Shown here piece by piece: positions 39,560 through 62,799 of a stretch of 64,000 nucleotides of DNA. Position 1 is the first letter of the stretch. The number at the start of each line of letters is the position of its first letter. Under the pieces are notes generated by a model. That model ran no database searches. It saw only the letters and a list, made by a program, of their open reading frames with translations, and had not been told where the DNA came from. The translations under genes were made by a program, and so were the position numbers. Location: contig JAJDEN010000020.1 of the NCBI GenBank assembly GCA_029259775.1, positions 78,846 through 142,845 of the forward strand, given 5' to 3'. This DNA is from Planctomycetota bacterium (GTDB lineage Bacteria > Planctomycetota > PLA2 > JAEUHO01).

Positions 39560-42500
39560 CTAGAGGTTGCGGCGGTACTTGCCGCCGACCTCGTAGAGCG
39601 CATTCGTGATCTGCCCCAGCGATGCGTGGCGCACGGTTGACATCAGTTCCTCGAAGACGTTGCCGCCCGCGCGAGCGACTTCCTTCAGGCGTACGAGCGC
39701 GGCCGCGGTATCGCCGGCGTGTTCGGCCTGGAACGACGCGAGGTGATCGAGCTGGGTCTGCTTCTCCTCCGTCGTCGCCCGGGTGAGCTCGGCGACGGCG
39801 GGGGTCATGTCCTCGGCGTCGTCCGGCAGGAAGGTGTTGACGCCGATGATGGGCAGCGAGCCGTCGTGCTTGCGCTGCTCGTAGTAGAGGCTCTGGCTCT
39901 GGATCTCGCCGCGCTGGTATTGCGTCTCCATCGCGCCGAGCACACCGCCACGGTCGTTGATGCTCAGGAACTCGTCCAGCACGGCACCCTCGACGAGATC
40001 GGTCAGATGATCGACGAAGTAGCTGCCCTGGAGCGGGTTCTCGCTCTTGAGCCAGCCGAGCTCGCTCGTGTTGATGAGCTGGACGGCCATCGCGCGGCGC
40101 ACGCTCTCCTCGGTCGGGGTCGTGATGGCCTCGTCGTAGGCGTTCGTGTGCAGCGAGTTGCAGTTGTCCTGCAACGCGAGCAGCGCCTGCAGGGTCGTGC
40201 GGATGTCGTTGAACTGGATCTCCTGCGCGTGCAGGGAACGTCCGCTCGTCTGGATGTGGTACTTCAGCTTCTGGCTGCGCCGGTTGCCGCCGTAGCGCTC
40301 GCGCATCGCCACCGACCAGATCCGCCGGGCGACGCGACCGATGACCGTGTACTCGGGATCGAGTCCGTTGCTGAAGAAGAAGGACAGGTTCGGCGCGAAC
40401 TCGTCGATGTGCATCCCGCGCGCGAGGTAGTACTCGACGAGGGTGAAGCCATTGGCGAGGGTGAAGGCCAGCTGGCTGATCGGATTCGCCCCGGCTTCGG
40501 CGATGTGGTACCCGCTGATCGACACGCTGTAGTAGTTGCGCACCTTCTTGCGGATGAAGTACGCCTGGATGTCGCCCATCATCTTCAGCGCGAAGTCCGT
40601 GCTGAAGATGCAGGTGTTCTGGGCCTGGTCCTCCTTGAGGATGTCGGCCTGCACGGTCCCGCGCACCATCATGAGCGTGCGGTCGCGAATGCTCGTCCAC
40701 TCGTCGGGGGTCGGAGCGCGCCCCTGCTCCTTCTCGAAGGCCGCCGTCTGCTGGTCGGTGGCGGCATTGAGGTACATCGCGAGAATGATCGGCGCCGGGC
40801 CGTTGATCGTCATCGACACCGAGGTGTTGCGATCGCACAGATCGAAGCCGCTGTAGAGGATGCGCATGTCGGCGAGCGTGCAGACCGACACGCCGCTCTC
40901 CCCCACCTTGCCGTAGATGTCCGGCCTCAGGTGCGGGTCCTCGCCGTACAGCGTGACCGAGTCGAACGCCGTAGAGAGCCGTGTTGCCCGCGCGCCGCTC
41001 GAGAGGTAGTGGAAGCGCTTGTTCGTCCGCGCGGGCGTGCCCTCGCCGGCGAACTGGCGCTTCGGATCCTCGTCGACGCGCTTGAAGGGGAAGACGCCGG
41101 CCGTGTAGGGGAACTCGCCGGGCACGTTCTCGAGCAGCAGGAAGCGCAACGCGGCGCCGGGCTCGTCGATGGCCGGCAGGGTCACCTTGGGAATGCGAAG
41201 TCCCGAGAGGGACTCGGTGGTCGCGCGCGCGGTCAGCGGGTGGCCGCGGACCTCGTAGACGATCTCGTCGCCCGCGTACTTCGTTCGCATGGCGGGCCAG
41301 GCGGCGAGCAACTCGGCCGCGCGCGGGTCCAGGCGCTTGCGGGCACGCTCGAGGGCTGCTTCCAGGCCCGGGCGTGCCGTCTCGTCCTCGATCAAGGCGA
41401 GCGCGCCCTCGAGGTGAGCGACGTCGCGGGCGAGCTGCCCCTGTTGGTCGGCCCAGGCGCGGTAGTCGCGCACCGAACGCACGATCTCGGCCAGGTAGCT
41501 GGTGCGGTCCGCCGGGATGATCGCGCCGTGCGTCTCGCCGTTGCGCTCCGCGGCGGACGGCGGCAGACGGAACGGGGGCGCCTTGCCTCCGAGGGCGCCG
41601 GCGCGCAGGGCCAGCGCGCGGAAGAGATCGTCGACGCCGCGGTCGCAGAAGCGGCTTGCCACCGTGCCGAAGACGCCGAGGTCTTCCTCGGGCGCCTCGA
41701 AGGCCTTGCGGTTGCGCCGGACCTGCTTGCGCACGTCGCGCAGTGCGTCCGCGCCGCCGCGTCGGTCGCTCTTGTTGACGGCCACGAGGTCCGCGTAGTC
41801 GAGCATGCCGATCTTCTCGAGCTGCGAGGCGGCGCCGTACTCCGGCGTCATCACGTAGAGCGAGAGGTCGGAGAGTTGGCTGACCTCGGTGTCCCCCTGC
41901 CCGATACCGCTGGTCTCGACGATCACCCAGTCGAAGCCGGCGAGACGGCAGAAGCGCACCGCGTCTTCGGTGGCCTCGGACAGCTCGCCGCGCGCGCCGC
42001 GCGTAGCGAAGCTGCGCATGTAGGCGCGCGGATGCGGCAGCGAGTTCATGCGGATGCGGTCGCCGAGCAGCGCGCCGCCGGTCTTGCGGCGGGACGGATC
42101 GACGCTGATCACCGCGACGGTCGCGTCGTCGCTCAGCTCGAGGAACCGCAGGACGAGCTCATCGACGAGCGAGGACTTGCCCGCGCCCCCTGTGCCGGTG
42201 ACCCCGATCACGGGCGCGCGCTCGTTCTGGGGGATCTGATCCACGGCCAGGCGCAGGGCGCCGCCCAGCGGCGTGTCGCCGAAGCCCTCCTTCTCCGCGG
42301 CCGTCAGGCACTGGGCCAGCAAGCGCTGGTCGCTCGCGCTGACGTCGGGCAGCGTCGGCGAAGCCGTGTCGATCACGCTCGGCAGCGGGACCGCGGCCTC
42401 CTCGAGCATGATGTCGATCATGCCCTGCAGGCCCATCTTGCGACCGTCCTCGGGCGTGAAGATCCGCGTGACGCCCGCGGCGTGCAGCGCCGCGACCTCC

Positions 42501-42823
42501 TCGGGCACGATGACGCCCCCGCCGCCGCCGAACAGCTTGATGTGCTCGGCGCCGCCCTCTCTCAGGAGCTCGAGGGCATAGCGGAAGTACTCGTTGTGGC
42601 CGCCCTGGTAGGACGAGATGGCAATGCCCTGGGCATCCTCGGCGATCGCGGCGCGGACGACCTCGTTGACCGAGCGGTTGTGGCCCAGGTGGATCACCTC
42701 GGCGCCGGAGTCCTGCAGGATGCGGCGCATGATGTTGATGGCGGCGTCGTGGCCGTCGAACAACGAGGCGGCAGTCACGAACCGCACAGGCTGGGCGCAG
42801 ACGGGGGTGACGGTGTCGCTCAT
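39560..42823 (-). CDS. icmF: Fused isobutyryl-CoA mutase (B12-binding domain + MeaB-like GTPase + mutase domain)
   Basis: 1087 aa. N-terminal B12-binding (DGHDAAINIM). P-loop GVTGTGGAGKSS. C-terminal methylmalonyl-CoA-mutase-like domain. Confidence 0.85.
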   Translation of the reverse strand: MSDTVTPVCAQPVRFVTAASLFDGHDAAINIMRRILQDSGAEVIHLGHNRSVNEVVRAAIAEDAQGIAISSYQGGHNEYFRYALELLREGGAEHIKLFGGGGGVIVPEEVAALHAAGVTRIFTPEDGRKMGLQGMIDIMLEEAAVPLPSVIDTASPTLPDVSASDQRLLAQCLTAAEKEGFGDTPLGGALRLAVDQIPQNERAPVIGVTGTGGAGKSSLVDELVLRFLELSDDATVAVISVDPSRRKTGGALLGDRIRMNSLPHPRAYMRSFATRGARGELSEATEDAVRFCRLAGFDWVIVETSGIGQGDTEVSQLSDLSLYVMTPEYGAASQLEKIGMLDYADLVAVNKSDRRGGADALRDVRKQVRRNRKAFEAPEEDLGVFGTVASRFCDRGVDDLFRALALRAGALGGKAPPFRLPPSAAERNGETHGAIIPADRTSYLAEIVRSVRDYRAWADQQGQLARDVAHLEGALALIEDETARPGLEAALERARKRLDPRAAELLAAWPAMRTKYAGDEIVYEVRGHPLTARATTESLSGLRIPKVTLPAIDEPGAALRFLLLENVPGEFPYTAGVFPFKRVDEDPKRQFAGEGTPARTNKRFHYLSSGARATRLSTAFDSVTLYGEDPHLRPDIYGKVGESGVSVCTLADMRILYSGFDLCDRNTSVSMTINGPAPIILAMYLNAATDQQTAAFEKEQGRAPTPDEWTSIRDRTLMMVRGTVQADILKEDQAQNTCIFSTDFALKMMGDIQAYFIRKKVRNYYSVSISGYHIAEAGANPISQLAFTLANGFTLVEYYLARGMHIDEFAPNLSFFFSNGLDPEYTVIGRVARRIWSVAMRERYGGNRRSQKLKYHIQTSGRSLHAQEIQFNDIRTTLQALLALQDNCNSLHTNAYDEAITTPTEESVRRAMAVQLINTSELGWLKSENPLQGSYFVDHLTDLVEGAVLDEFLSINDRGGVLGAMETQYQRGEIQSQSLYYEQRKHDGSLPIIGVNTFLPDDAEDMTPAVAELTRATTEEKQTQLDHLASFQAEHAGDTAAALVRLKEVARAGGNVFEELMSTVRHASLGQITNALYEVGGKYRRNL

Positions 42824-42903
42824 GGGGGCCGCACAACGTACCGGCCCGACGCCATGGGCTCAATCCAGGGCGGGGGGGGCGTACGGGCGCGCAAGGCCTG
42901 ATT

Positions 42904-43407
42904 TCAGGCCTCAGGCGGGGCGTGGCTCTCGTCGGTGACGGGTCCGACGACCACGGCGACCAGATGCGGCAGGGCCCTGGCGACGAAGCGAAAGCACGCG
43001 ACGGCGCCCTGGGGGCGCCCTGGCAGGTTCACGACGACCGCGCGGCCCGCGATGACCCCCGCCGTCGCCCGGCTGCCAAGGGCGTGGATCGTGCTGTCGA
43101 CGCTCCGGCGGCGCATCTCCTCGCCGAGACCGGGGATCTCGAAATCAACGACTTCGAGGGTTGCCTCGGGCGTCACATCCCGAGGGCCGACACCCGTCCC
43201 GCCCGTCGTGAGGACGAGCGGCGCGAGGCCCGCGGATGCGAGGAGGGCGGCCGCGATGGCCGCCCGCTCATCCGCCACCGTGCGCACGTCGACCAGATCG
43301 AACCCGGCCTCGGTCAGCACCGGTCGCAGCAGGTCGGCCGTCTCGTCGGCGCGCTCGCCGGACGCGGCTCGATCGCTGATCACGAGGAGGCTCGTCTTCA
43401 CGCTCAT
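42904..43407 (-). CDS. moaB: Molybdenum cofactor biosynthesis protein (MoaB/MogA family)
   Basis: LLVISDRAASGERADETADLL...LVLTTGGTGVGPRDVTPEA. RBS GAGGGGG. ATGA overlap with the upstream gene. Confidence 0.75.
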   Translation of the reverse strand: MSVKTSLLVISDRAASGERADETADLLRPVLTEAGFDLVDVRTVADERAAIAAALLASAGLAPLVLTTGGTGVGPRDVTPEATLEVVDFEIPGLGEEMRRRSVDSTIHALGSRATAGVIAGRAVVVNLPGRPQGAVACFRFVARALPHLVAVVVGPVTDESHAPPEA

Positions 43408-44657
43408 ACCACCCCCTCGGGATGCACGCCCTCCTGGGCGAGGATGCCCAGCACCCATTCGTACTCGCGCGCCAGCGCCTCGACGAGGTCGAAGCCCGAG
43501 CCGGCCGCGCGCTCCGCGTCAGGCAGCACGTCCCACGTGTAGGTCTCGATCTCGATGTGATCGGTCAGGCCGTCGCGGGCGGTGGCACGCAGCGCCCGCT
43601 CCAGATCGGGCTGCGTCGTGCGCAGGGGCCCCACGCCTTCGTGCCGGAACACCGGCACGTGGAAGTGGCTGCGCCACGGGCCGCGCGCCTGCCAGACCGG
43701 ATCGTCAAGCACCACGCCGAGGTCGTCAGCGACGTGCACGACGCCGTCCTCGTCCCGGGCGCTCACCTGATGCAGGTACACGGGCTCGTCGAACGCGGCG
43801 AGGGCCGCGCGCCCGTCCGCGTCGGTCGGATCGGGAAGCTCGAGCGCGCACGAAGCCTGCAGCTTCGCGACGGCGATGCCGTCGGCCGCGAGCGCCGCGA
43901 GGTTGGCCTCGACGTCTTCCCACTCGACGGCCTGGTGGCAGACGTCGTAGCAGACGCCGATGTGCGCCTTCAACTCGGGCGCGTCCGCCAACACGTCGGC
44001 GAGGGGCCCCGCGAAGAACGCGCGCAGCTCCGCGGTGGTCTCGAGCGTGCAGCCGGGCTCGGGCTCGATGCCCAGCGTGATGTGCTTGCCCGTGTTGCGT
44101 GCGGTCTGATGCAGCCCACGTAGTACGCCGAGGAGGTTGCGCGCGCAGGTGCGCTGCTCGTCGGCGCCGCCGCCCCAGCCCTTCCAGGAGAGCGGGGACG
44201 TGCTGAGCGAGAGGCGCTCGGCACCGGACGGCAGCAGCGCCAGCACGGTGGCGAAGGCCTGTGTGTAGGCCGCGCGCGGCAGCTCGGTCCACGCAGGCCT
44301 GTAGACCTCGTCCTTCAGCGGCTTGCCATGGAAGTCGCCGTGGACGAACGCGTTGCCGCTGAAGATGTGCAGATCGTGCGCTTCGAGGAGATCAGGCAGA
44401 CCGCCCAGGCCCCCGGGGTCGCGCAGCAGCTCGGCGATGCCCGCCCAGCTCCAGCGCACCGCGAGGCCGAAGGGGCCCTCGACGCCCAGCCGCTGGCGTA
44501 GCGGCAGCACGGTGTCGTGGATCGCGTCGCGCGTGGAGGCGGCGTCGCCGCCCGGGTGGACGTTCATCCCGTAGGCGAGCCAGAGGGTCCGGCCGTCGGA
44601 GGTGGTGAGGCGCACGGGCGGCAGCGTACCGCGAGCGCCCGCGTAGGATGCCTGCAT
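43404..44657 (-). CDS. Sugar phosphate isomerase/epimerase family (xylose-isomerase-like TIM barrel) protein; start uncertain
   Basis: TIM-barrel-like pattern (LWLAYGMNVHPGG, HITLGIEPEPG, IGVCYDVCHQAVEWED). The ATG at 44655-44657 overlaps the divergent ATG at 44656. Confidence 0.5.
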   Translation of the reverse strand: MQASYAGARGTLPPVRLTTSDGRTLWLAYGMNVHPGGDAASTRDAIHDTVLPLRQRLGVEGPFGLAVRWSWAGIAELLRDPGGLGGLPDLLEAHDLHIFSGNAFVHGDFHGKPLKDEVYRPAWTELPRAAYTQAFATVLALLPSGAERLSLSTSPLSWKGWGGGADEQRTCARNLLGVLRGLHQTARNTGKHITLGIEPEPGCTLETTAELRAFFAGPLADVLADAPELKAHIGVCYDVCHQAVEWEDVEANLAALAADGIAVAKLQASCALELPDPTDADGRAALAAFDEPVYLHQVSARDEDGVVHVADDLGVVLDDPVWQARGPWRSHFHVPVFRHEGVGPLRTTQPDLERALRATARDGLTDHIEIETYTWDVLPDAERAAGSGFDLVEALAREYEWVLGILAQEGVHPEGVV

Positions 44658-45627
44658 GCGCCGCCTCCTCCCGCTTCTGCTCTTGCTCCTCGCGGCCTGC
44701 GGCGACGAGCGCGCTGGAGGCCCCCCGCCGGACGAGCTGCCGGGCGATCCCGAGGAGGCGCTCGCCTGGGTGCGCGCAGCGGAGGATGACGACGCGGAGC
44801 TACGCCGACGCCTCGGCCTCTGGCGCTTCGACGGCGACTTCGAGTCCATGCCGGAGACGCAGCAAGCGGTGACGTGGCGCCTGCAGCTGGCGCTGCGTGC
44901 CGGCGACGTCGAGGCGGCCGCCGAGGACGTCGAGCTGCTGGAGGAACACTTCGACGGGCAAGGGGAACATCCAGAGGGACGCGAGTTCACGTCGGACGCG
45001 ATCCGCCTCGGTGTGTTCGAGGAGGCCTTGAACGAGGCGCGGCGGCGCAGCGAGGGCCCGAAGCCGGACGCGAGGGCCGCGCGCAGCGCCCTGGACGTCG
45101 CACGGGCACAGCTGCACGACGGCGACGTCGAAGACCTCGCCCGGCTGGCGGGCATCTCCGCGTGGGTCCGGAGCGGCCGGGGCGTCAAGCTCCTCACGCG
45201 GCTCGGCTCCGACGCCCCCATCAGCCCCAAGGTGGACGCCACCCTCGTCCTGATCGTGGACGACTTCAGCTTGGGCGAAGGCATGTTGACGGAGGTCTTG
45301 AAGCAGTGGACGCGTGACCACGCCGAGCGCCGCTTCGACCGCGTGCTGGTGCCGCTGCTGCGGGGTCAAGTGCGCATGGGCCTGCGCTTGGTCCCGGTGG
45401 AGGACGAGGCAGAGGAGCTGGCCTCGTTCGCGACGCGTGCGAAGGACATCGGCCTCGCGCAGGAGACGCCGATCCCGGCGACGGCCCTACGCAAGCTCGG
45501 CCTCGACGTCGGGGACGCGGCCATCCTCCTGCTGGACCGCCAGGGCCGCATCGCGGCGCGCCTCTCGGGTCGCGGGCTCGACCTGCGCACGCTCGAGCCC
45601 GTACTCCAGAAGCTCCTCACGCGCTGA
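44656..45627 (+). CDS. Hypothetical lipoprotein
   Basis: Signal plus lipobox MRRLLPLLLLLLAACGDE. Acidic helical protein. Confidence 0.55.
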   Translation: MRRLLPLLLLLLAACGDERAGGPPPDELPGDPEEALAWVRAAEDDDAELRRRLGLWRFDGDFESMPETQQAVTWRLQLALRAGDVEAAAEDVELLEEHFDGQGEHPEGREFTSDAIRLGVFEEALNEARRRSEGPKPDARAARSALDVARAQLHDGDVEDLARLAGISAWVRSGRGVKLLTRLGSDAPISPKVDATLVLIVDDFSLGEGMLTEVLKQWTRDHAERRFDRVLVPLLRGQVRMGLRLVPVEDEAEELASFATRAKDIGLAQETPIPATALRKLGLDVGDAAILLLDRQGRIAARLSGRGLDLRTLEPVLQKLLTR

Positions 45628-45669
45628 ACGCGGGGGACGCAGGGCCTTGCCCCGGCACCTGGGTCACGT

Positions 45670-45750
45670 GGGCGGCCACAAGGGCCGCCCCTACCCGTAA
45701 GGGCGCACGACAGAGGCAGCGTCCCGGGCGGCCACAAGGGCCGCCCCTAC
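45670..45750. repeat. Palindromic double-hairpin intergenic element, copy 1: two GGGCGGCC-ACAAG-GGCCGCCC hairpins flanking a ~35-nt CCGTAAGGGCGCACGACAGAGGCAGCGTCCC spacer
   Basis: Read from the sequence. A near-identical copy lies at 51241..51321 with arm changes that preserve pairing. Confidence 0.7.
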
Positions 45751-45814
45751 ATCGGGCCTTGTCCCGTCCTGGCGCCACATGTGGTTCAATTCCGAACCTG
45801 GCAGCCGCTGGCGA

Positions 45815-46957
45815 CTAGAGCTTGAAGGTGAGGCCGGCGAAGCCACCAAAGTCGATCGTGGCCTGCTGGTCCTCGAGGTTCTCGGTGAACCCGATCTCGA
45901 ACTCGATACGCTCGCTGATGTCGGCCTTCATCGCCACGTTGATGTAGGCGCTGATGCCCGGGTAGGCGGCGAGATTCTTGACCAGGCGGCTCGCCGCGTT
46001 GACCTCGATGATGAAGCTGTGGCTCTGGTTCCACGCGAACTCGAGCGCCACGAAGCCCTGGCCACGCACCGACTCGTACTCGATGCCATCGAGGGAGGTG
46101 TCGCTGAACCATGTGCCGCCGAGGCCCGCGTACAGGTCCCAGCGATGCCCGAGCTGCTTCGCCACCACGAACTGCAAGCCGACGTCGACACCGCCGCTGT
46201 CGTACGGATCCGTGCCGGTCGGCAGCGCGAGACGGGTGATCACCGAGCCGCGCCAGTCCGAGCGGCAGCAGGGCTGGATCACGTTCCAGTGCGCCTCGAG
46301 CTCGATGTTGCCGAGGCCGACGCCGCGCTTGTCGTCCCACGAGATCGCGTTGAACGCGTCGTCCCGCCCGTTGACGAAGTAGGAGTCGTTGGTGAAGAAC
46401 GGGCGGCCGTTGTCGAGGAACCCGAGCGGTTCGGTCAGCTCGTGGAACCAGTCGATGGGACCGTCCATGAAGCCGGCACCGCGCCACTGGAGCGGCACGC
46501 GGATCCCGACGCTCAGGCGCGGGTAGAGGCCGTAGCGGAGGTTGAGCTCGGTCGTCTGATGCTCGCCGTCGACGATGAAGCGACGGTCGGCGGGCGTGGG
46601 ACCGATGTTGCTCTGGTTCCAGCCGAAGTCGTTGCCCCGGTCGACGTGGAACTTCACGATCCACGAGCGGTAGGGCAGGGGATCCGGCGCACTCGCCGGC
46701 AGGGTCAGCTTGGGCTGCGCGAGGATCCACTCGTCCCGGATCTCGCTCGGACCCTTCGGCGCCCACGCGTCGCGCAGGATCTCGTAGCGCCCAGGCCGGG
46801 GCTGGCGCGTCAGACGCGGCTGCCGGACGGTGACCTGGTCGGCCCGCGCCCCGGCGGGCACGGCGATGCTCGTCGGACGCAGGTCCTGCGCGACGGCCTC
46901 GGCGGTGGTGAGTGCGCCATGCAGAATGCAGGCAACGATGGCGAACGCAGTACGCAT
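45815..46957 (-). CDS. Putative outer-membrane beta-barrel protein
   Basis: Signal peptide MRTAFAIVACILHGALTTAEAVA. Alternating amphipathic beta-strand pattern. Aromatic-rich C-terminus (FAGLTFKL). Confidence 0.55.
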   Translation of the reverse strand: MRTAFAIVACILHGALTTAEAVAQDLRPTSIAVPAGARADQVTVRQPRLTRQPRPGRYEILRDAWAPKGPSEIRDEWILAQPKLTLPASAPDPLPYRSWIVKFHVDRGNDFGWNQSNIGPTPADRRFIVDGEHQTTELNLRYGLYPRLSVGIRVPLQWRGAGFMDGPIDWFHELTEPLGFLDNGRPFFTNDSYFVNGRDDAFNAISWDDKRGVGLGNIELEAHWNVIQPCCRSDWRGSVITRLALPTGTDPYDSGGVDVGLQFVVAKQLGHRWDLYAGLGGTWFSDTSLDGIEYESVRGQGFVALEFAWNQSHSFIIEVNAASRLVKNLAAYPGISAYINVAMKADISERIEFEIGFTENLEDQQATIDFGGFAGLTFKL

Positions 46958-47021
46958 GGCTGGGTGGATCCCTCCGGGGCGGACTCTAGCAAGGAATTGC
47001 CCGGAACTGGCGCCAGGCCCG

Positions 47022-49757
47022 CTATCCAACGTCGCGCCCCGGACGCGGGTCCCGGCGCCAGACGTTGCGCATGAGGCGACGGCGCTCCCGGGGATCGGAC
47101 GCGGCGCGGGCCAGGGTGCGCATGCCGCGGCGGGCAGCGAAGCGGTGACCGACCGCGCGACCGTCGTCGCCCACGCCGCGGAAGACGCGCGCCAGGACGT
47201 CATGCAGGCGCACGTCGTCGGCTCGGTTACGGCGTGTGACCTCGAGCAGCGAGGAAGCCGCGACCGCGGCCGCCCGTGCTTCTTCGAGGCGTCCGGCCGT
47301 CCGGAGCGCGTCGGCCAGGTGCGCGTAGCACGTCGCGCGTAGATCGACGGGCAAGTGTGTGTCGGCACCGAGCAGCTCGAATCCGGCGCACGCCTCCTCC
47401 ACGCGCCCCGCCGCCATGTGCAGGCGCGCGGCCGCCATGCGCCCGACAGCCTTCTGGGGTCCGACGGGGAGGATGTCGCGCGCACGGCCGGCGTCGCCAG
47501 ACCGCAAGCTCGCGTCCACGAGCGCGGCGCGGGCGCGATCGGCCTCCTCTTCGAAGCCGGCACTGCGAAGATCGCGCTCGCAGCGCACGAGCAGATGATC
47601 TGCGCCGGGCACGCCGGCGCGGAGGTCGGCGCGCGCCAGGACGGCGGCGGCCTTGACGCGCCCGAGCGCCGTGGACGCGAGGCCTGCCGCCATCTCCGCG
47701 TGGTGGCGCTCGCGCAGCAGGTCGCCGCAGCCTCGGAAGGCGGAAGCCAAGGCCAGGTGGATGCGCGGCAGCAATCGGCTTGCGCGGCTGGACTCCGCTG
47801 CGGCCAGGGCAACGCGCAGGCGATCTGCGGCGCGGTCGTAGTCGTCGAGCCACATGAGCGTCCGGCCCGCGAGCAAGTTCGCCTCGGCCGTACCCCGCGC
47901 GTCGCCGAGCAGACGCAAGAGGTTGCCCGCACGCTGCAACGGCTCGAGCGCCGCGGCCAGACGGCCGTGCCGGATCTCGCTGGAACCGAGCGCGAGAAGC
48001 AGCTCCCCCGCCGCATGGACATCTCCGTGCATGAGGCGGAGCCGCACGGCACGGCGCCGATGCGACGCGGCCGCACGCGGTCGATCGTCCGCCGTGGCAC
48101 AGGCTGCGAGCCCCTCGTGCCAGCGGGCGCTGCGCTCCAGATCGCCAGGTGCGCAGGTCGGTGCGGCGTGGCGCCACGCGCGACGGGCGGCGGCCGGATC
48201 ACCAGCGCTCAGGTCGAGTTTCGCGAGCAGGGCCCAGGCGTCGAAGTGGATGGCGTCCTGTTGGACGGGAAAGCACGGTAGGCCCTCCGCGAGGAGGGTG
48301 CGCGCCTCGTCGGCCTGCCTATGACGGGCCTGGGCAAGCAGGTGCGCGGCGGACGGCGTCGCCGACAGCGCGGCGGGGCCGAGCAACGCGCGGGCCGCGG
48401 ACTCGCGGCCCGCATGCCAGAGGCGGTGCGCGACGTGCGCGACGCCGGCATCCCCGGCCGACAACCGCGCGGCCGCCTCCGCGAGCACGTCGAGATGCCA
48501 GCCCTCGGCCGTGCGCAGGACGGGAAGCTGCTCGAGGCACGCGGCGAGGCCCTCGCCGACGGCGCCGGGCTCGCTCCCCATCGCAACGAGCCGCAACCGG
48601 CGCACGGCATCGTCGCGATGCGCGCCGCCACGGACGACGCGCCGGGTCCATGCCGCCTCGAGACGCGCGCGCGCACCCGAGCGCGCGGCCGGCGACATGC
48701 GCTCACGGTAGGCACGCTGCTTCGCGCGGGTGGCGAAGTAGCGAGCGGACGCCAGACCACCGCGTGCGGCCACGGCCTCGTCGAGCAGGGCGCGGGCGAA
48801 GGACCGTTTCACGCCCGCCGCGTCGGCGAGCAGGGCTACGTCGTCCGGGGTGCCCTGGACGGCGGCCACTTCGAGCACGCGACGGGCCGGCGCGCCCTGC
48901 GTCCGGATCCATTGCAGGAACGCGCCGCCGGTGCGGCGTCCGTCCGGCCAGGTCTCGGGAGCGCGCGTGACGACGACGCTGCGACCGCGAAGCTCGAGTT
49001 CGCCGGCTCGCGCCATGCGGCGGACGGCCTCGATGACGCGCCCGGGCAGTCCATCGCACGTCTTCGTGAGCGCCGGCGCCAGACGCCGAGCGGTGGCCGG
49101 ATGGCGCAGCCAACGTCGGAGCAGGAGCTCGACCTGCGTCACGCCGAGCGGCTCGACTTCCCACGCGATCTGCGAGACGACACGGGAGGACCCGTCGGTG
49201 GCGCCCGCGATGACGCCGAAGCCATGTCCTTGGGCCGAGGGCATGAGGACGGCGAGCGTGGCCTCGTCGAGGTCATGCAGGTCGTCGACGAGCACCGGGC
49301 CGATCGGGGCGAGGCGCTCGACCAGGGAACGCACGAGCCGCGGGTCGAGTGCGGAGGCGCCGCGCCGGCTCGGACGGTCGCCCAGCCACGCAGCCAACAC
49401 GAGGATCTCGTCGCGAGCGAGGGGGTGCACGGCGCGCAGCGCACGCTCGAGGGCAGGCCCGGCCGGCTGGGGGAACACGCGTCGCAACAGCTCGTGGAGC
49501 GGGGCCATCGGGATGCGTGCGTCGGGCGCCGGGTGGATACGCAGGAGTCGCGGCGCGCCGGTCTCGCGGATCAACTGGTCGGCCTCGTCGAGCATGCGTG
49601 AGATGCCCGCGCCGGAGGGCCCCCAGAGCGTGATCCATCCCGCACCGCGCTGCCGCACCCGCAGCTGCGTCTTGAGACGTCCGAGCAGCGGCTCACGCCC
49701 TGTCAGGGGGACCGCGTGGCGGTACTCGAACCAGTCCGGGGCGCCTGAGGGTTGCAC
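47022..49757 (-). CDS. STAND-type AAA+ ATPase with C-terminal TPR/helical repeats (AfsR/MalT-like regulator)
   Basis: Walker A WGPSGAGISRML; hhhhDDLHDLD Walker B. Long Ala/Leu/Arg-rich TPR-like region. Confidence 0.7.
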   Translation of the reverse strand: MQPSGAPDWFEYRHAVPLTGREPLLGRLKTQLRVRQRGAGWITLWGPSGAGISRMLDEADQLIRETGAPRLLRIHPAPDARIPMAPLHELLRRVFPQPAGPALERALRAVHPLARDEILVLAAWLGDRPSRRGASALDPRLVRSLVERLAPIGPVLVDDLHDLDEATLAVLMPSAQGHGFGVIAGATDGSSRVVSQIAWEVEPLGVTQVELLLRRWLRHPATARRLAPALTKTCDGLPGRVIEAVRRMARAGELELRGRSVVVTRAPETWPDGRRTGGAFLQWIRTQGAPARRVLEVAAVQGTPDDVALLADAAGVKRSFARALLDEAVAARGGLASARYFATRAKQRAYRERMSPAARSGARARLEAAWTRRVVRGGAHRDDAVRRLRLVAMGSEPGAVGEGLAACLEQLPVLRTAEGWHLDVLAEAAARLSAGDAGVAHVAHRLWHAGRESAARALLGPAALSATPSAAHLLAQARHRQADEARTLLAEGLPCFPVQQDAIHFDAWALLAKLDLSAGDPAAARRAWRHAAPTCAPGDLERSARWHEGLAACATADDRPRAAASHRRRAVRLRLMHGDVHAAGELLLALGSSEIRHGRLAAALEPLQRAGNLLRLLGDARGTAEANLLAGRTLMWLDDYDRAADRLRVALAAAESSRASRLLPRIHLALASAFRGCGDLLRERHHAEMAAGLASTALGRVKAAAVLARADLRAGVPGADHLLVRCERDLRSAGFEEEADRARAALVDASLRSGDAGRARDILPVGPQKAVGRMAAARLHMAAGRVEEACAGFELLGADTHLPVDLRATCYAHLADALRTAGRLEEARAAAVAASSLLEVTRRNRADDVRLHDVLARVFRGVGDDGRAVGHRFAARRGMRTLARAASDPRERRRLMRNVWRRDPRPGRDVG

Positions 49758-49838
49758 GGTCCCCTATCGGCACTTCCCGCGCATGCCCCAAGGCCGAAGC
49801 ATCCCCCGGCGAGAGGTCCATTGGAAGGCCTCCAGGGC

Positions 49839-51005
49839 CTAGAGCGCACCGTGGAACAGAGGGCCGCGGACGGTCTCCTCGGTCTGCATCGTGGAGGCCA
49901 CATGATCCACGATGTCGGCGGCCGCCGAGGGCCGCCCCATGTGGCGGGCGCGGCGAGCCAGAGTGGCCCGCAGATCGGGGTCGTCCAGCAGCTGGACGGT
50001 CCGGCAGCGAACCTCTTCCGGGGTCAGGGCGCGGAAGCCCGCGCGCGCCTCGACGACAGCATCTGCGTTGCGCTCTTCCTGCCCGGGAATCGAGCCGGAG
50101 ATCACCATCGGCCGGCCGGCTGCCATGCACTCCGAGGTGCTCATGCCGCCGCTCTTGGAGATGACGACGTCGGCGACGGCCATGAGGTCGCGCACGTCGT
50201 GGACAAAGCCCAGAGGCAGCAGGACCGCGCCCTCCGGCCGAGGCAAGCGGGCGATGCGTCGGCGCAGCCGCTCATTGCGGCCGCACACGGCGATGACCTG
50301 GATGTCGCGGCGGTCGCGCCACAGACCGAGGATGGAGCGGCCCATCGGGCCGGCAGCGAAGCCCCCGCTCAAGAACAGCACCGTGGGCCGGTCCGGGTCC
50401 AGCCCATAGCGCACGCGCACGCGGGCGAGGTCCGGTTGGGTGGAGAAGTCGGGCCGGACGGGGATGCCCGTGACGTCGATCCGCTTCTCATCGACTCCGT
50501 AGGTGAGAACCATGCGTGTCTTCACCAGGTCGCTCGCCACGTAGTAGTGGTCGACCTCGGGGTAGTACCAGTTGCGGTGCGTGTCGTGATCGGTGATCAC
50601 CGCATGCAACCGAGTGTCGATCTTGCCCTTGCGCAGGGCCCGCCCCAGCAGCTCGGGGGCAAGAAAGTGCGTGCACAGCACCACGTCGGGCTTGCGCTGC
50701 TTGACCAGGCGCACGAAGCGCCTGCCGGCGATGACCGTGATGGCGTGGGCGAGGCGTGACGTCTTCTCGTTCGTGATGTCGTAGAGATGGCGCCAGAGCA
50801 GCGGGTGCTTGTCGACGAGGCGGATGTAGCCCCAGCGGTAGACGTGCTTGAAGACGTTGTTCGTCAGCGCGACGCAGTCCACATGGGTCGTCTCGATCTC
50901 GGGATGCCGCAGCTTCAGCGCGGCGGCCACGGCCTTGCCGGCCATCGTGTGACCGTGCCCCGCCGAGCCGCTGACCACGAGCACACGAGGATTCGAGGGG
51001 GACAC
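49839..51005 (-). CDS. Glycosyltransferase family 28 (monogalactosyldiacylglycerol synthase / MurG-like)
   Basis: VLVVSGSAGHGHTMAGKAV N-terminus. C-terminal GT-B fold motifs (VISKSGGMSTSECMAAGRPMV). Confidence 0.8.
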   Translation of the reverse strand: MSPSNPRVLVVSGSAGHGHTMAGKAVAAALKLRHPEIETTHVDCVALTNNVFKHVYRWGYIRLVDKHPLLWRHLYDITNEKTSRLAHAITVIAGRRFVRLVKQRKPDVVLCTHFLAPELLGRALRKGKIDTRLHAVITDHDTHRNWYYPEVDHYYVASDLVKTRMVLTYGVDEKRIDVTGIPVRPDFSTQPDLARVRVRYGLDPDRPTVLFLSGGFAAGPMGRSILGLWRDRRDIQVIAVCGRNERLRRRIARLPRPEGAVLLPLGFVHDVRDLMAVADVVISKSGGMSTSECMAAGRPMVISGSIPGQEERNADAVVEARAGFRALTPEEVRCRTVQLLDDPDLRATLARRARHMGRPSAAADIVDHVASTMQTEETVRGPLFHGAL

Positions 51006-51240
51006 GACGGCTCCGGTTGGCGCACTCCGGCTGGGGCGGGGCGCGGGATGCTACCACGTTACCTACGGCTCACATGCCTAGCAGCGGCCTCCTTCCCTGC
51101 GGCTCGGTCGACCGTCGTCAGCACCCGCGTAGGGGCGCCCCTCGTGGGCGCCCACACCAGCCTGATGTTCGGCCTTGGGCCATGGCGTGACGCATCCGGC
51201 TGCTCACCTGCGCCGGGAAGATGGAACGCCGTCCGCGGAA

Positions 51241-51321
51241 GGGCGACCACAAGGGTCGCCCCTACCCGTAAGGGCACGCGACGGAGGGGGCGTCCCGGGC
51301 GACCACAAGGGTCGCCCCTAC
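51241..51321. repeat. Palindromic double-hairpin intergenic element, copy 2: GGGCGACC-ACAAG-GGTCGCCC x2, immediately 3' of nrdJ
   Basis: Same architecture as 45670..45750. The G>A change in the left arm is matched by C>T in the right arm. Confidence 0.7.
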
Positions 51322-51379
51322 ACGCCCCGAGCCACCGATCGCCCCCGGCATCAAGCTCAGCGCCCTCCCAGTGCGCCGG

Positions 51380-54300
51380 CTACGAGCAGCCGGAGGTGGC
51401 TCCGCAGGTCTCACACTTCTCACACGTGCCGTTGCGCACCATGGTGAACGAACCGCAGTCGGGGCAGGCGTCGCCGGTGTAGCCCTGCAGACGCGCCTTC
51501 TCGGCCTCGGTCATCGCCACGCTTCCGCGGTAGCTGAACCGCGCTTCGCGCACCTCGGAGCGGGTCTGGACCGTGACGTTCTCGGCCGACGGCGAGGCCG
51601 GCTGCGAGAGCGAGTAGCCGGTGCTCTTGGGACGCAGGGTCTCGCTCGCAAACACGCCTTTCGACGTACCCGCGCCATGCTCGACGCCGTGGCCGTTGCC
51701 GTTGCCATTCCCGCCTCCAGCGCCGCTTCCGCTGGCATGTGCCTCGCCGGACGCGCTCCCGTTGGACCCGCCCCCGTCAGCCCCGCCCGCATCAGACCCG
51801 CCCGCATCAGACACGTCCTGGGTGACCGTGCGCTCCTCGACGAGCTCTTCGCTGTCGTACTCGGGCGTGGCCTCGCCGGCGTCCGCATCGCCACGGACCG
51901 CGTCGGACGTGAGGTCCTCGGGCGTGACCTGCGCGAGATCCTTGCGGTCCAGGTAGGACACAGCCAGCTCGCGGAAGATGTAGTCGATGATCGACGTGGA
52001 CATCTTGATCCGGTCGTTGCCCTTGACGATGCCGTTGGGCTCGAAGCGCGTGAACGTGTAGGCGTCCACGAACTCCTCGAGCGGCACGCCGTACTGCAGG
52101 CCGATCGAGACGGCGATCGCGAAGCAGTTCATCAAGCTCCGGAAGGCAGCGCCCTCCTTGTGCATGTCGATGAAGACCTCTCCGATGTGGCCATCGGTGT
52201 ACTCGCCCGTGCGCAGGTACACCTTGTGCCCGCCGATCATGGCCTTCTGCGTGTACCCGCCGCGACGCTGGGGCATCCGGCGACGCTTGGACAGGTAGCG
52301 GACGACAACGCGCTCGCGGATCTTGTTCGCCGCGGCGCGGACGCGCGTGTCGAGGCGATCGCTGACGAGATCTTCGGGCCCGGTCGCATCGGGGCCGGTG
52401 GCGTTGGGATTGCCACCCTCGGCCTCCTCGAGCAGCTCGGCGAGATCGAGCTCGGTCGTCGTGTTGAGCGGCTGGCTCAGCTTGCTGCCGTCGCGGTAGA
52501 GCGCCATCGCCTTGATCATCTTGCCCCAGGAGAGGCGGTAGGCGTCGGTGACGTCCTCCACGCTCGCCTCGTGCGGCATGTTGATCGTCTTGCTGATCGC
52601 GCCGGAGATGAACGGCTGCGCGGCCGCCATCTGATTGATGTGGCCGACGGCCGAGATCGAGCGCTGGCCGTAGCGGCCGCACTTGTTGGCGCAGTCGAAG
52701 ACGGGGAGATGTTCGTCCTTGAGGCCCGGCGCGCCCTCGATGGTCATCGTGCCGCAGATGGCGTCGTTGGCCTCGTGCACCTGGTCCCGATCGAACCCGA
52801 GGAAGCCCAGCAGGTCGAAGCTCGGATCCTCATAGATGTGCGTCGGCACCTTCAGCTCGTCGCGCAGGAAGTCGTCGCCCACGGTGAAGCGGTTGATGAC
52901 GAACGAGATGTCGAACGCGGACGGCAACTGCGCTTCGATCCGGTCGATGATCTCGGACGTGAAGCCCTTGACCCGCAGCGTCACCTCGTTGATCTGCGGC
53001 GCGCCCCTGAGCGACCCGGTGCCCTTGACGTACCGGACGATCTCCTCGGTCTGCTTCTCGTCGTAGCCGAGGTTGCGCAGCGCGATCGGGACCGAGCGGT
53101 TGATGATCCGGAAGTAGCCGCCTCCGGCGAGCTTCTTGAACTTGACCAACGCGAAGTCCGGCTCGATGCCGGTCGTGTCGCAGTCCATGACCAGACCGAT
53201 CGTGCCCGTGGGCGCGAGGACACTGACCTGGGCGTTGCGGTAGCCGTGGCGCTCGCCCTGCTCGACGGCGCGATCCCAAGCGTCACGCGCCGCGGCGACG
53301 AGGTACGACGGGCAGTGCTCGGGGTCGATGCCCATGGGCGTGACCGTGAGCCCCTCGTACTCGGCGGCCGGCGCGTCGTAGGCCGCGCGACGGTGGTTGC
53401 GCATGACGCGCATCATCGACGAGGCGTTGCGCTTGTGACGCGCGAACGGCCCGAGAGCCTCGGCCAACTCGGCGGAGGTGGCGTAGGCCTCGCCCGTCAG
53501 GATCGCCGTGATGGAGCCGTTCCACGAGCGGCCTTCCGGCGAGTCGTAGGGCACACCGAGCTGCATGAGCAGCGAACCGAGGTTCGCGTAGCCGAGACCG
53601 AGCGTGCGGTAGTCCCACGACAGGCGCGCGATGCGCTTGCTCGGGTACTGCGCCATCAGGACGGAGATCTCGAGCACCGTCGTCCAGATGCGAACGGCGT
53701 GGCGGAAGCCCTCGACGTCGAACGACCCCTCGTCCGCGTTGAAGAACGTCACGAGGTTGAGCGAGGCCAGATTGCAGGCCGTGTCATCGAGGAACATGTA
53801 CTCGGAGCACGGGTTGGACGCGTTGATGCGCCCGTCCTTCGGGCACGTGTGCCACTCGTTGATCGTCGTGTCGAACTGGACACCCGGGTCGGCGCAGGCC
53901 CACGCGCTGTAGGCGATGCGCTCCCAGAGGTCACGAGCCCGCAGGGTGCGCGCGATCTGGCGCTCGCCCTGGGGGCCGGGCGTGCGCAGGTAGAGGTGCC
54001 ACTCGCGGTCGTCTTCGACAGCCTTCATGAAGTCGTTGTCGAGACGAACGGAGTTGTTCGAGTTCTGGCCGGAGACGGTGACGTAGGACTCGCTGTCCCA
54101 GTCGGTGCTGTACGTCGGGATGTCGATGCCGGAGAAGCCCTGCTGCGCGAGGGAGACGCAGCGCATCACGTAGTTCATCGGGACGAGCGCGTCACGGGCC
54201 GCCTTGATGGCGACGCGCAGGCGGCTGTTCTGCTTGGGGTCGAAGCGGGCGTCCTCATCGCTGCAGTCCGCGCGCAGCAGGGGATCGGCGCAGGCGCCAA

Positions 54301-55216
54301 AGACGCCGTTGAGCGACTTCTCGAGCATGCGCGAGCCAGACACCAGCGCGGCGACCTTCTGCTCCTCGCGGGACTTCCAGTCGACGAACTCCTCGATGTC
54401 GGGGTGGTCGACGTCGAGGCAGACCATCTTGGCCGCACGACGGGTCGTGCCGCCCGACTTGATGGCGCCGGCTGCGCGGTCGCCGATCTTGAGGAACGAC
54501 ATGAGGCCGGAGGACTTGCCGCCGCCCGAGAGGGGCTCGCCCTCGCCGCGCAGGGCGCTGAAGTTCGTGCCGGTCCCCGAGCCGTACTTGAAGAGACGCG
54601 CCTCACGGACCCAGAGGTCCATGATGCCGCCTTCGCCCACGAGGTCGTCGCCGACGCTCTGGATGAAGCAGGCGTGCGGCTGGGGCCGCTCGTAGGCCGA
54701 CTTGCTCACGTTCAGCCGGCCCGTCTCGGGATCGACGTAGCTGTGGCCCTGGGCCGGACCGTCGATGCCGTAGGCAAAGTGCAGGCCTGTGTTGAACCAC
54801 TGCGGGCTGTTCGGCGCGCAGCGCTGGTCAGCGAGCATGCGGCACAGCTCGTCGTAGAACGCCGACGCGTCCTCCTCGCCGTCGAAGTAGCCGTAGCGCT
54901 CGCCCCAGTGGGTCCAGCAGCCGGCCAGGCGGTGGAACACCTGCCGGGCATCGGTCTCGCCGCCGCAGACCTGCTCACCGCCCGAGTCCAGGACGGGGTC
55001 GCCCGACGGATCGGTCTGGGGCACGCCGGCGCGGCGGAAATACTTCTGGGCCAGCACGTCGGTGGCGACCGAGGACCAGGTGGCCGGGACGCTCACGTCG
55101 TCGAGGTGAAAGACGACCGTGCCGTCCGGATTGCGGATCTCCGAGGTCCTGGAGCTCCACTCGATCCCCTCGTAGGGGTCCTGCCCGGCGGTCGTGAATC
55201 GACGACTGAACTTCAT
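51380..55216 (-). CDS. nrdJ: Adenosylcobalamin-dependent ribonucleoside-triphosphate/diphosphate reductase, class II, with a low-complexity Gly/Ser/Asn insert and C-terminal zinc ribbon
   Basis: RBS AGAGG at the [20 protein letters not shown] start. Class II RNR blocks throughout. C-terminal CPDCGS...CEKCETCG. Confidence 0.85.
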
Positions 55217-56324
55217 ACGTGCCTCTCTCGCAGCGCGCACACGCGCGCGATCTCTCAAATAGCCGTGTCGAAATGAACGTGTTGTCTGCCTGGGCGTGCC
55301 GCGCCGACTGACATGACGTCAGGCGGCAAGACATCCCTGGAACGTCTCTCCCCAGGAGGATCTCTCCCCAGGAGGAGTCGTGCCCCTGGCGATCTGCATT
55401 GGATCCGCCCAGGCGGCGGCCCAGCGCGCCCCCTCCAGGCTCGCTCGTTGCCGTACCCGTCGCATCCCGTCGCACATCGCCACGGCACTGCTTCGCAGCA
55501 CTGCACTGCTTCGCAGCACTCAGGCGCGCGTCACGGCAACGCCCGACAGCCCGCCGCAGGCAGCGCCTCGGAGCCCGCCGCCGTTGCGGCCGGCCTCCCG
55601 GGACTCCCGCCTCCCGGGACTCCCGCCTCTCGGGACCTCCCGGGGCCTTCCCCGAAGTCGTCCCGAAGGTGCTGCCAAACGTGCCGTCGGGCGATCCCGA
55701 CCAACGCAACCCATCTGGTGCCAACCCCAACAGGTTGTGGTCCCATGGGGGTGACTCCACAGCATGTCGTAGCACGACCGCCGTGAGAGCGCACGAAGAA
55801 GTTCCGTCGCCAAACCGGATGGCAGCCACTCTCGGCCGCGTCACCAGCTCCACGAGCCCGCCTCACGAACCCGCCTCACGAAGGACAGGCGCCCGCGACC
55901 GGGTTCCTGTGCTGTGCGACGCGCTTCCGCAACGGATCCCTCCGCAACGAGACGCATCCCTCCGCGAAGAGACGGATCCCTCCGCGGCGAGACGTAACCG
56001 CTTCACCCCCCAAGACACGCCTGTCCGGGGTCGAAGAAGTTACGCCCGGGGTGGGACAGTCCCGGGCGGGGTAGGGATCCCGTCGCCGGCGTCCGTGCGG
56101 CAGTGAGGAGGCAGCCTGACGTGCCCCCAAAGCGTCCAAATCCACACCGGCCTGCGCCGCTTCTTGCGGCCGTCTGAAGCCAGTCTGGCGCGCTCGCGAC
56201 GAGCCATCGACGTCCAAGCGCCACCAATGGGGCTGCGCGGGATGACAGACGCCGACAACCGGAATCGCGACGCGATTTGGCGCGAACCAACCGTCCGCCT
56301 TCGGGGTTCGTATAGATAGACGAA

Positions 56325-62683: not shown

Positions 62684-62760
62684 CGGACACGGACACGGAC
62701 TGGGACTGGGACTGGGGCTGGGGCTGGGGCTGGGGCTGGGGCTGGGGCTGGGGCCAGGGC
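62684..62760 (+). repeat. Compound hexanucleotide microsatellite (GGACAC)3-(TGGGAC)2-(TGGGGC)7; G4-prone on the + strand
   Basis: Read directly. 40 nt upstream of the coaB start. Confidence 0.85.
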
Positions 62761-62799
62761 AAGAGCCACCCCCTCCCACGCCCAAGCTATCCTTCCCCC

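Follow-up and report, generated by a model that had tools for sequence, protein, structure and literature searches.

In the planctomycete DNA analysed here (the window, 64,000 nucleotides; G+C 68.8%), copies of a short GC-rich hairpin unit lie at two loci. An 82-nt composite of two such units (composite 1, 45670-45751) occupies the 187-nt gap between the convergent genes for a lipoprotein-like protein and a DUF3187 protein. A single unit and a second composite (composite 2, 51241-51322) share one 374-nt gap, with the gene for a class II ribonucleotide reductase (RNR) upstream and that for a glycosyltransferase downstream, both on the - strand. Two composites and five units at two loci, all intergenic, were thus directly seen in the 64-kb window (Table 1, where the units are labelled as REP units). 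REP repeats are short GTAG-tagged palindromes that are spread by a domesticated transposase and are selfish or semi-domesticated.

Table 1. Repeat features and neighbouring genes at the two loci, in window coordinates.
Feature	Position	Strand	Remarks
Lipoprotein-like gene	44683..45627	+	stop codon 43 nt upstream of composite 1; 314 aa in public data, 323-aa ORF in the window; lipobox MRRLLPLLLLLLAAC
REP unit A1, composite 1	45670..45694	-	GTAG-GGGCGGCC-CTTGT-GGCCGCCC; stem variant GG/CC; covariance model (CM) 44.8 bits; hairpin in fold
Middle segment, composite 1	45697..45725	+	GTAA and imperfect hairpin GGGCGC-12 nt-GCG(T)CCC; opposite in orientation to the units on either side
REP unit A2, composite 1	45726..45750	-	identical to A1, same orientation; head-to-tail dimer, period 56
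DUF3187 gene	45815..46957	-	380 aa on host contig L124; stop 64 nt from composite 1, convergent with the lipoprotein gene
MGDG-synthase-like glycosyltransferase	49839..51005	-	5' end faces the 374-nt gap with the single unit and composite 2
Single REP unit	51129..51153	+	GTAG-GGGCGCCC-CTCGT-GGGCGCCC; stem GC/GC, loop variant; CM 44.9 bits
REP unit A1, composite 2	51241..51265	-	stem variant GA/TC; CM 45.3 bits
Middle segment, composite 2	51268..51296	+	GTAA and imperfect hairpin GGG(C)ACGC-10 nt-GCGTCCC; homologous to 45697-45725
REP unit A2, composite 2	51297..51321	-	identical to its partner at 51241-51265
Class II (B12) ribonucleotide reductase	51380..55258	-	stop codon 58 nt from composite 2

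The initial annotation had placed the element at convergent 3' ends, which applies to composite 1 (lipoprotein and DUF3187 genes) and not to composite 2, which lies between two - strand genes. The lipobox of the upstream ORF is in keeping with the lipoprotein gene that it named beside composite 1. Given the position of the RNR stop codon, a read-through RNR transcript would carry the GTAG strand of composite 2. All named homologues of the flanking proteins came from Planctomycetota MAGs. GC skew was flat across the window and gave no information on how the units are oriented relative to replication direction. Other repeats were also seen in the window. At 16698-18639 a 126-bp unit (42 codons if coding) is repeated in tandem at least 14 times, with 81-90% identity among the copies; this is probably a gene for a repeat-domain protein. 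A short tandem run of the GGGCTG/GGACTG type at 62685-62762 and reiterated 24-30-nt GC-rich motifs (ACGA.GGCCACGAGCA...) near 1 kb (696-1216) are probably low-complexity coding sequence.

Each composite is built of two identical 25-nt units in direct orientation, which flank a conserved 31-nt spacer; the unit consensus is GGGCG[G/A]CC-ACAAG-GG[C/T]CGCCC-CTAC. On the + strand 45670-45751 reads GGGCGGCCACAAGGGCCGCCCCTAC, the 31-nt spacer (CCGTAAGGGC...GCGTCCCG), GGGCGGCCACAAGGGCCGCCCCTAC again and a final A. The double hairpin described by the initial annotation for 45670-45750 was found there as described, two identical copies of GGGCGGCC-ACAAG-GGCCGCCC being located at 45670-45690 and 45726-45746; the gap between them is 35 nt from stem to stem and 31 nt between the full 25-nt units including the CTAC tail. 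Read on the opposite strand, all units have the form GTAG-GGGCNNCC-CTTGT-GGNNGCCC (GTAG, 8-bp stem and 5-nt loop), and the GTAG foot (CTAC on the other strand) directly abuts the stem in all five units of the window. The hairpins were stable on both strands when folded (-53 to -61 kcal/mol per 101 nt, z down to -4.1). A second copy of the element at 51241, also claimed earlier, is real (89% identity over 82 nt) but inexact, since a stem pair and five spacer positions differ. The palindrome GGGGCGCCCC noted near 51120 as a related single palindrome is indeed related, and is actually a complete fifth unit, inverted, with a third stem variant.

A covariance model was built from the unit variants and run without filters on the whole window. 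Five units were recovered at 44.8-45.3 bits, and everything else scored 13.9 bits or less. Matches to the unit pattern numbered 5-6, against 0.01-0.04 per window in shuffled sequence. A generic scan of the window for GT[AG][AG] followed by any hairpin gave 34 matches against 20-45 in shuffles and was uninformative; only the specific unit stands out from shuffles, and the generic foot-plus-hairpin does not. A perfect GC-rich palindrome at 43245-43265, GGGCGGCC-GCGAT-GGCCGCCC, shares the stem of composite 1, lies within long ORFs and has no CTAC/GTAG foot. It scored only 13 bits with the unit model, and its likeness to the composite 1 stem is probably coincidental.

Similarity between the two composites ends at the borders of the element and the flanks are unrelated, so the composites are not part of a larger duplication. 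The nine differences between them comprise four in the units and five in the spacer (26 of 31 positions identical, 84%). Both units of composite 2 carry the same compensatory G:C to A:T change, by which the stem GGGCGGCC/GGCCGCCC becomes GGGCGACC/GGTCGCCC. Partner units are identical within a doublet and differ between doublets by this compensatory base pair; with three variants and two doublets, identity of the partners could be due to chance (about 1 in 9). In both composites the spacer carries GTAA and an imperfect hairpin, which read on the other strand from the units on either side. This hairpin was not recognised by the unit model in the window, and no counterpart of it was found in the metagenome scan. 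Judged from these two sequences, the spacer may be a degenerate inverted (B-type) REP, in an A> B< A> layout reminiscent of BIMEs. The single unit at 51129-51153 and the first unit of composite 2 (51241-51265) form an inverted pair with GTAG outside (HH, REPIN-like), 87 nt apart, which is a heterodimer of the GC/GC and GA/TC variants; in an ssDNA fold of the region its two units join in one long stem, as in a REPIN (z = -3.8).

Direct arrays of the unit were found in other genome loci with periods of 39, 45, 48 and 56 nt, and a metagenome scan yielded 52 loci with head-to-tail (HT) dimers at 27-35-nt spacing. The spacers of these metagenomic dimers are lineage-specific and often reiterated identically within an array, and none resembles the spacer of the window. 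Since spacers are reiterated in place within arrays, local tandem amplification of a unit-plus-spacer module is indicated. The stem variant was common to both partner units in 42 of 69 HT dimers. The junction specific to the composite (unit 3' half followed by CTAC-NN-GTAAGGGC) had no match in the metagenome scan. HT is a defined but minority REP arrangement (Di Nocera 2013, PMC3733652); for the present unit family HT dimers and arrays are not rare. What is particular to the window is the same spacer at two loci 5.5 kb apart, from which it follows that the composite or a module of it was copied between sites. The less common features are thus the HT arrangement with a spacer common to both loci, and partners that are identical within and different between doublets.

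The host was represented in short-read unitigs of Logan runs SRR15505515/18/19, which hold the exact flanking proteins. Unitigs L121 and L122 cover window positions 42053-45751, and L124 covers 45722-51178. L121/L122 meet L124 in exactly 30 nt (45722-45751; k-1, k = 31), consisting of TCCC, unit 2 of composite 1 and the A. A unitig break at a 30-mer implies that the 30-mer occurs elsewhere in the sample with different neighbours, and composite 2 is not that other occurrence because its stem differs. The 30-nt node lies within the element, which implies at least one further copy with the same spacer end (the last 4 nt of the spacer). Unitig L124 ends at 51178, a point that is not a unit boundary: the single unit ends 25 nt earlier and composite 2 begins 63 nt later; strain-level variation or a drop in coverage are possible causes. 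The alternative allowed for by the initial annotation, that only two copies exist and lie within an ordinary duplicated region, was checked: the flanks proved unrelated, a fifth unit was found, and the 30-nt unitig node points to a further copy.

Orthologous sites in relatives were compared. In a relative with an 89%-identical lipoprotein orthologue (L123) the genes on both sides are present and a distal stretch of the gap is conserved, but the element is missing. Three further relatives (L125-L127; 77-79% identity) were searched at their syntenic loci, and no unit was found within 3 mismatches. This absence at orthologous sites, together with the assembly breaks, indicates a dispersed, mobile repeat and not a locus-specific RNA gene. 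One of the three relatives (L125, GCA_024639415.1) carries a different GT[AG]G-footed hairpin, GCGTGG-N4-CCACGC-[TC]AC, at 832-850 and 6390-6408. These two copies (0.03 expected) lie in both orthologous gaps, and the hairpin is absent from the window. The comparison of these sequences suggests that REP-bearing gaps are permissive landing sites colonised by lineage-specific REP families, with turnover of the families.

The pattern GGGCNNCCACNAGGGNNGCCCCTAC was scanned over one genome per species, with matches at 120 or more loci. At least a dozen phyla, by record titles, are represented among the matches listed: Acidobacteriota, Chloroflexota, Bacteroidota, Pseudomonadota, Planctomycetota, Latescibacterota, Thermodesulfobacteriota, Armatimonadota, Gemmatimonadota, Verrucomicrobiota, Zixibacteria, Margulisbacteria and Bacillota, the last including isolate genomes (Flavonifractor, Pseudoflavonifractor). 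The pattern leaves two pairs of the stem unconstrained, and these were Watson-Crick in 152 and 157 of 171 matches (the at least 120 public loci plus the window), against about 25% by chance, and at least eight stem variants occurred among the 171. The covariance-model alignment had 96.9% paired cells and 30 double-sided changes. Its covariation score was 0.240 against 0.102 in shuffles, none of 500 shuffles reaching 0.240, and the pairing and covariation figures collapsed when the partners were slid by 1-3 columns. The variants of the window (GG/CC, GA/TC and GC/GC) are mutually compensatory. Outside the 25-nt unit no conservation was found among the public loci.

After de-duplication by locus, stem mismatches that read as A.C on the CTAC-tail strand, and so as G.T wobbles on the GTAG strand, prevailed by 15:5 (p = 0.04). 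This bias modestly favours the GTAG strand as the folding strand. With a crude gene caller, 58% of the units in public loci were non-genic, against 13% of random positions, and about 42% lay within the crude ORF calls; for the unit family, 'extragenic' is an enrichment and not a rule. Between co-directional gene pairs in public loci the GTAG strand was the sense strand by 28:14. The 25-nt unit was also seen in 76 stretches of viral or proviral IMG/VR contigs (L180-L255), sometimes as inverted pairs near contig ends (L227, L231); a RAYT-like gene was found in none of the 76. These contigs may be vehicles for spread across phyla, or may be host-derived sequence.

No Y1/HUH transposase or RAYT was found in the 64-kb window by motif regex and tblastn (best E about 1). 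When the proteins of loci L071 and L061 were used as tblastn queries, RAYT-like genes were found in 5 of the genome loci listed (at least 120) and in 11 of the 52 metagenomic HT-dimer loci (260 kb), where the dimer lies within or abuts the gene. The expectation for a gene with one or a few copies per genome is well below one occurrence in the 52 metagenomic loci. The unit thus lies beside or inside RAYT/TnpA(REP) genes at 16 loci in total. Locus L011 is a REPtron, in which a RAYT gene (4237-4698) is flanked by three and four strong units. In L061, L071 and L094 the stretch from the HUH motif (PNH[FM]H) to LWQRNY.EH contains units in frame, which encode VGATLVVA, VGAPLVGA and GQPQGLPL. The intact L071 protein matched the NCBIfam model REP_Tyr_transpos (NF047646, REP-associated tyrosine transposase) with E = 8.9e-14 and 51.6 bits, below the 80-bit cut-off, and the Pfam model Y1_Tnp (PF01797) weakly, with 17 bits, below the 23-bit cut-off. 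These scores are probably lowered by the REP-encoded insert, which splits the domain.

Several of these loci had features of their own. L011 (3708-5399, from a Ca. Poriferihabitaceae MAG) holds seven strong A units on one strand interleaved with six weaker B units (GGGCGGGCACAAGACCCGCCCCTAC) on the other, in modules of 148-214 nt that are themselves tandemly reiterated; the same wobble pattern was seen in its A and B units. In L061 (1698-2550, from a Longimicrobiaceae MAG) the RAYT-like gene is split by a frameshift within an internal REP array and is either a pseudogene or an assembly error. Two RAYT-like copies lie within about 2.3 kb in L116 (139-2368). The composite was also considered as the remnant of a RAYT internal insert and this was rejected: the gaps measure only 187 and 374 nt, and the sole tblastn match within them was the unit-encoded peptide.

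The element of the window is very probably a small cluster of GTAG-type REP units of the RAYT subclass-2.4 type, present here as HT doublets. In the REP literature (Nunvar 2010; Di Nocera 2013, PMC3733652; Quentin 2018, PMC6006769) a GT[AG]G foot that abuts a GC-rich palindrome is given as the defining mark of REPs. Subclass 2.4 of TnpA(REP) has canonical GT[AG]G REPs whose stem base consists of three G-C pairs, REPs inside tnpA(REP), and a patchy distribution consistent with horizontal transfer (Quentin 2018, PMC6006769). Judged by sequence, the unit family and its RAYT association match this published subclass. In Table S1 of the same paper REPs beginning with GTAGGGGC appear 105 times; that foot is present there and the present loop form was not found. 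The initial annotation had proposed a REP/BIME-type palindrome or a structured RNA. The REP part of that proposal stands on the GTAG foot, the GC-rich 8-bp stem, the compensatory changes, the dispersal and the link to RAYTs; the doublets do not look like a classical BIME, the two strong units being direct.

By analogy with the published biochemistry of other TnpA(REP) enzymes, a mechanism can be outlined. In those systems the enzyme binds and cleaves only the ssDNA hairpin of the GTAG strand, cutting between C and T on the 5' or 3' side of the hairpin, and GTAG is essential for cleavage (PMC8266576). The host would encode a RAYT of the subclass-2.4 type that acts on the units of the window. 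The GTAG strand would fold as ssDNA, for example at a replication fork, and the HUH/Y1 enzyme of the host would bind the hairpin with its GTAG foot and cut at a nearby CT; such sites are present in the loop and in the spacer on the GTAG strand. New intergenic sites would then receive copies of units, either by cleavage with strand transfer or by priming. The 82-nt HT dimer would most likely have arisen from a unit-plus-spacer module that was copied to the second locus and locally duplicated or homogenised, a sequence of events that would leave partners identical within a doublet and a compensatory pair between doublets. Any effects on the RNR, glycosyltransferase, lipoprotein and DUF3187 transcripts, such as pausing or a block to 3' exonucleases, would be incidental.

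Other readings were weighed against REP units copied as modules. The 82-nt composite might itself be mobile, as a miniature non-autonomous element of the IS200/IS605 style, PATE-like and a direct-repeat counterpart of a REPIN, whose same-strand hairpins would be left and right ends and whose whole ssDNA segment would be excised and pasted by a Y1 transposase. The shared unit-spacer-unit layout and homologous spacer of the two copies between unrelated flanks agree with such an element, as do the further copy with the same spacer end implied by the unitig node (last 4 nt of the spacer, unit 2 and A) and the same-strand hairpins at the ends of IS200/IS605 elements (PMC8266576, PMC6006769). However, only two whole copies were seen, the junction specific to the composite had no match in the metagenome collection, and the lineage-specific spacers of HT arrays elsewhere are reiterated in place, as expected of local tandem amplification. 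Copying of the whole would also need four parallel substitutions or gene conversion to account for the identity of partners in each doublet and the different stems of the two doublets, and this origin is considered unlikely. A distinct non-autonomous element of this planctomycete lineage, consisting of unit, inverted degenerate hairpin and unit, copied whole by a RAYT and with its arms kept identical by conversion, is given a slimmer chance. Mobility of the composite, if true, would mean RAYT-driven mobilisation of head-to-tail dimers, an arrangement reported to be rare or absent in most genomes.

The element could alternatively be primarily an RNA element of 3' UTRs, either a terminator or a stabilising block to 3' exonucleases, kept under selection for expression; the initial annotation had suggested a structured RNA that terminates or stabilises transcripts. 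Scans of both strands at both loci for a hairpin with a T-run found no terminator, the hairpins being followed by CCCCTAC or GGGACG; no sigma-70-like promoter was found at the two loci, and a scan of 40000-56000 against Rfam 15 gave no match at E <= 1. That claim is not supported, given the lack of a U-tract terminator and of an Rfam match and the absence of the element at orthologous sites of relatives at 77-89% identity. Across phyla, moreover, the unit is found in settings unrelated to one another, coding regions among them, and composite 1 lies between convergent genes, where either strand could be transcribed. The stability of the hairpins on both strands, the position of both composites 43-64 nt downstream of stop codons, the sense bias of the GTAG strand and the tolerance of G.T wobbles are all in keeping with a function in RNA, and 3'-UTR effects of E. 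coli REPs are documented; a primary RNA role is nevertheless judged very unlikely. Regularly spaced direct repeats with a palindromic core, and a spacer of a length within the CRISPR range, also recall an orphan mini-CRISPR array with two 25-nt direct repeats and a 31-nt spacer. Such an array is excluded for practical purposes, since spacers are conserved and reiterated: the two loci share 84% identity in the spacer, and identical spacers recur within arrays of the same unit elsewhere. The unit is also found as singletons, as inverted pairs and inside RAYT genes, and the flanking genes are not cas genes.

The REP units of the window were compared with known systems. They resemble the REPs of subclass 2.4 (PMC6006769; PMC3733652) in the GTAG foot at the stem base, in the three basal G-C pairs (GTAG-GGGC...GCCC), in being extragenic and dispersed, and in stem sub-variants that differ by complementary changes; elsewhere members of the unit family lie on either side of RAYT genes, and also within them as in-frame insertions that separate the HuH motif from the Y motif. 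Subclass 2.4 REPs are abundant in Cyanobacteria and Bacteroidetes and scattered elsewhere, whereas the present unit comes from a planctomycete. A literature search for the precise short form (8-bp stem, CTTGT loop, 25 nt) gave no match in main texts, in the supplements of Di Nocera 2013 or in Table S1 of Quentin 2018. The REP of S. maltophilia (SMAG; Corneloup 2021, PMC8266576) likewise has GTAG, a perfect 8-bp palindrome and a short loop, but measures 23 nt with a 3-nt loop, against 25 nt with a 5-nt loop here, and its stem and loop sequences differ. Its RAYT belongs to group 3 / subclass 2.5, unlike subclass 2.4, and binding and cleavage between C and T were shown there in vitro, while the present unit is known from sequence.

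With the BIMEs of E. coli (clusters of REP Y/Z) the composites share the clustering of REPs, conserved linkers and an intergenic position near 3' ends, and in the L011 REPtron two unit subtypes alternate in opposite orientation as they do in BIMEs. BIMEs consist of regularly spaced, alternating REPs, whereas the strong units of the window are direct; alternation is obtained only if the degenerate middle hairpin is counted, which is GTAA-footed, imperfect, opposite in orientation and unseen by the unit model. REPINs, pairs of inverted REPs that fold into a single long hairpin and are copied together as one unit, were reportedly described by Bertels and Rainey in 2011. The inverted pair at 51129-51265, with its GTAG ends outside and one long ssDNA hairpin, is like a REPIN; it is an accessory heterodimer and a candidate only, and the 82-nt composite differs in consisting of direct repeats.

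For annotation, hairpins of this form should be labelled as REP units and not as terminators, sRNAs or mini-CRISPRs, and REP units explain the breaks in short-read assemblies of this organism at this site. What is new here is the short 25-nt form, the HT doublet and the planctomycete host; the kind of element is already known, and current understanding is not overturned. One and the same 25-nt REP unit, its variation confined almost entirely to compensatory changes of the stem, is shared by at least a dozen phyla and by IMG/VR contigs, and it is tied to RAYT genes that carry it inside their own coding sequence. This unit family regularly forms HT dimers and arrays. Related genomes, with different GTAG-footed hairpins in the same two intergenic sites, provide an example of what the sequences suggest to be turnover of REP families.
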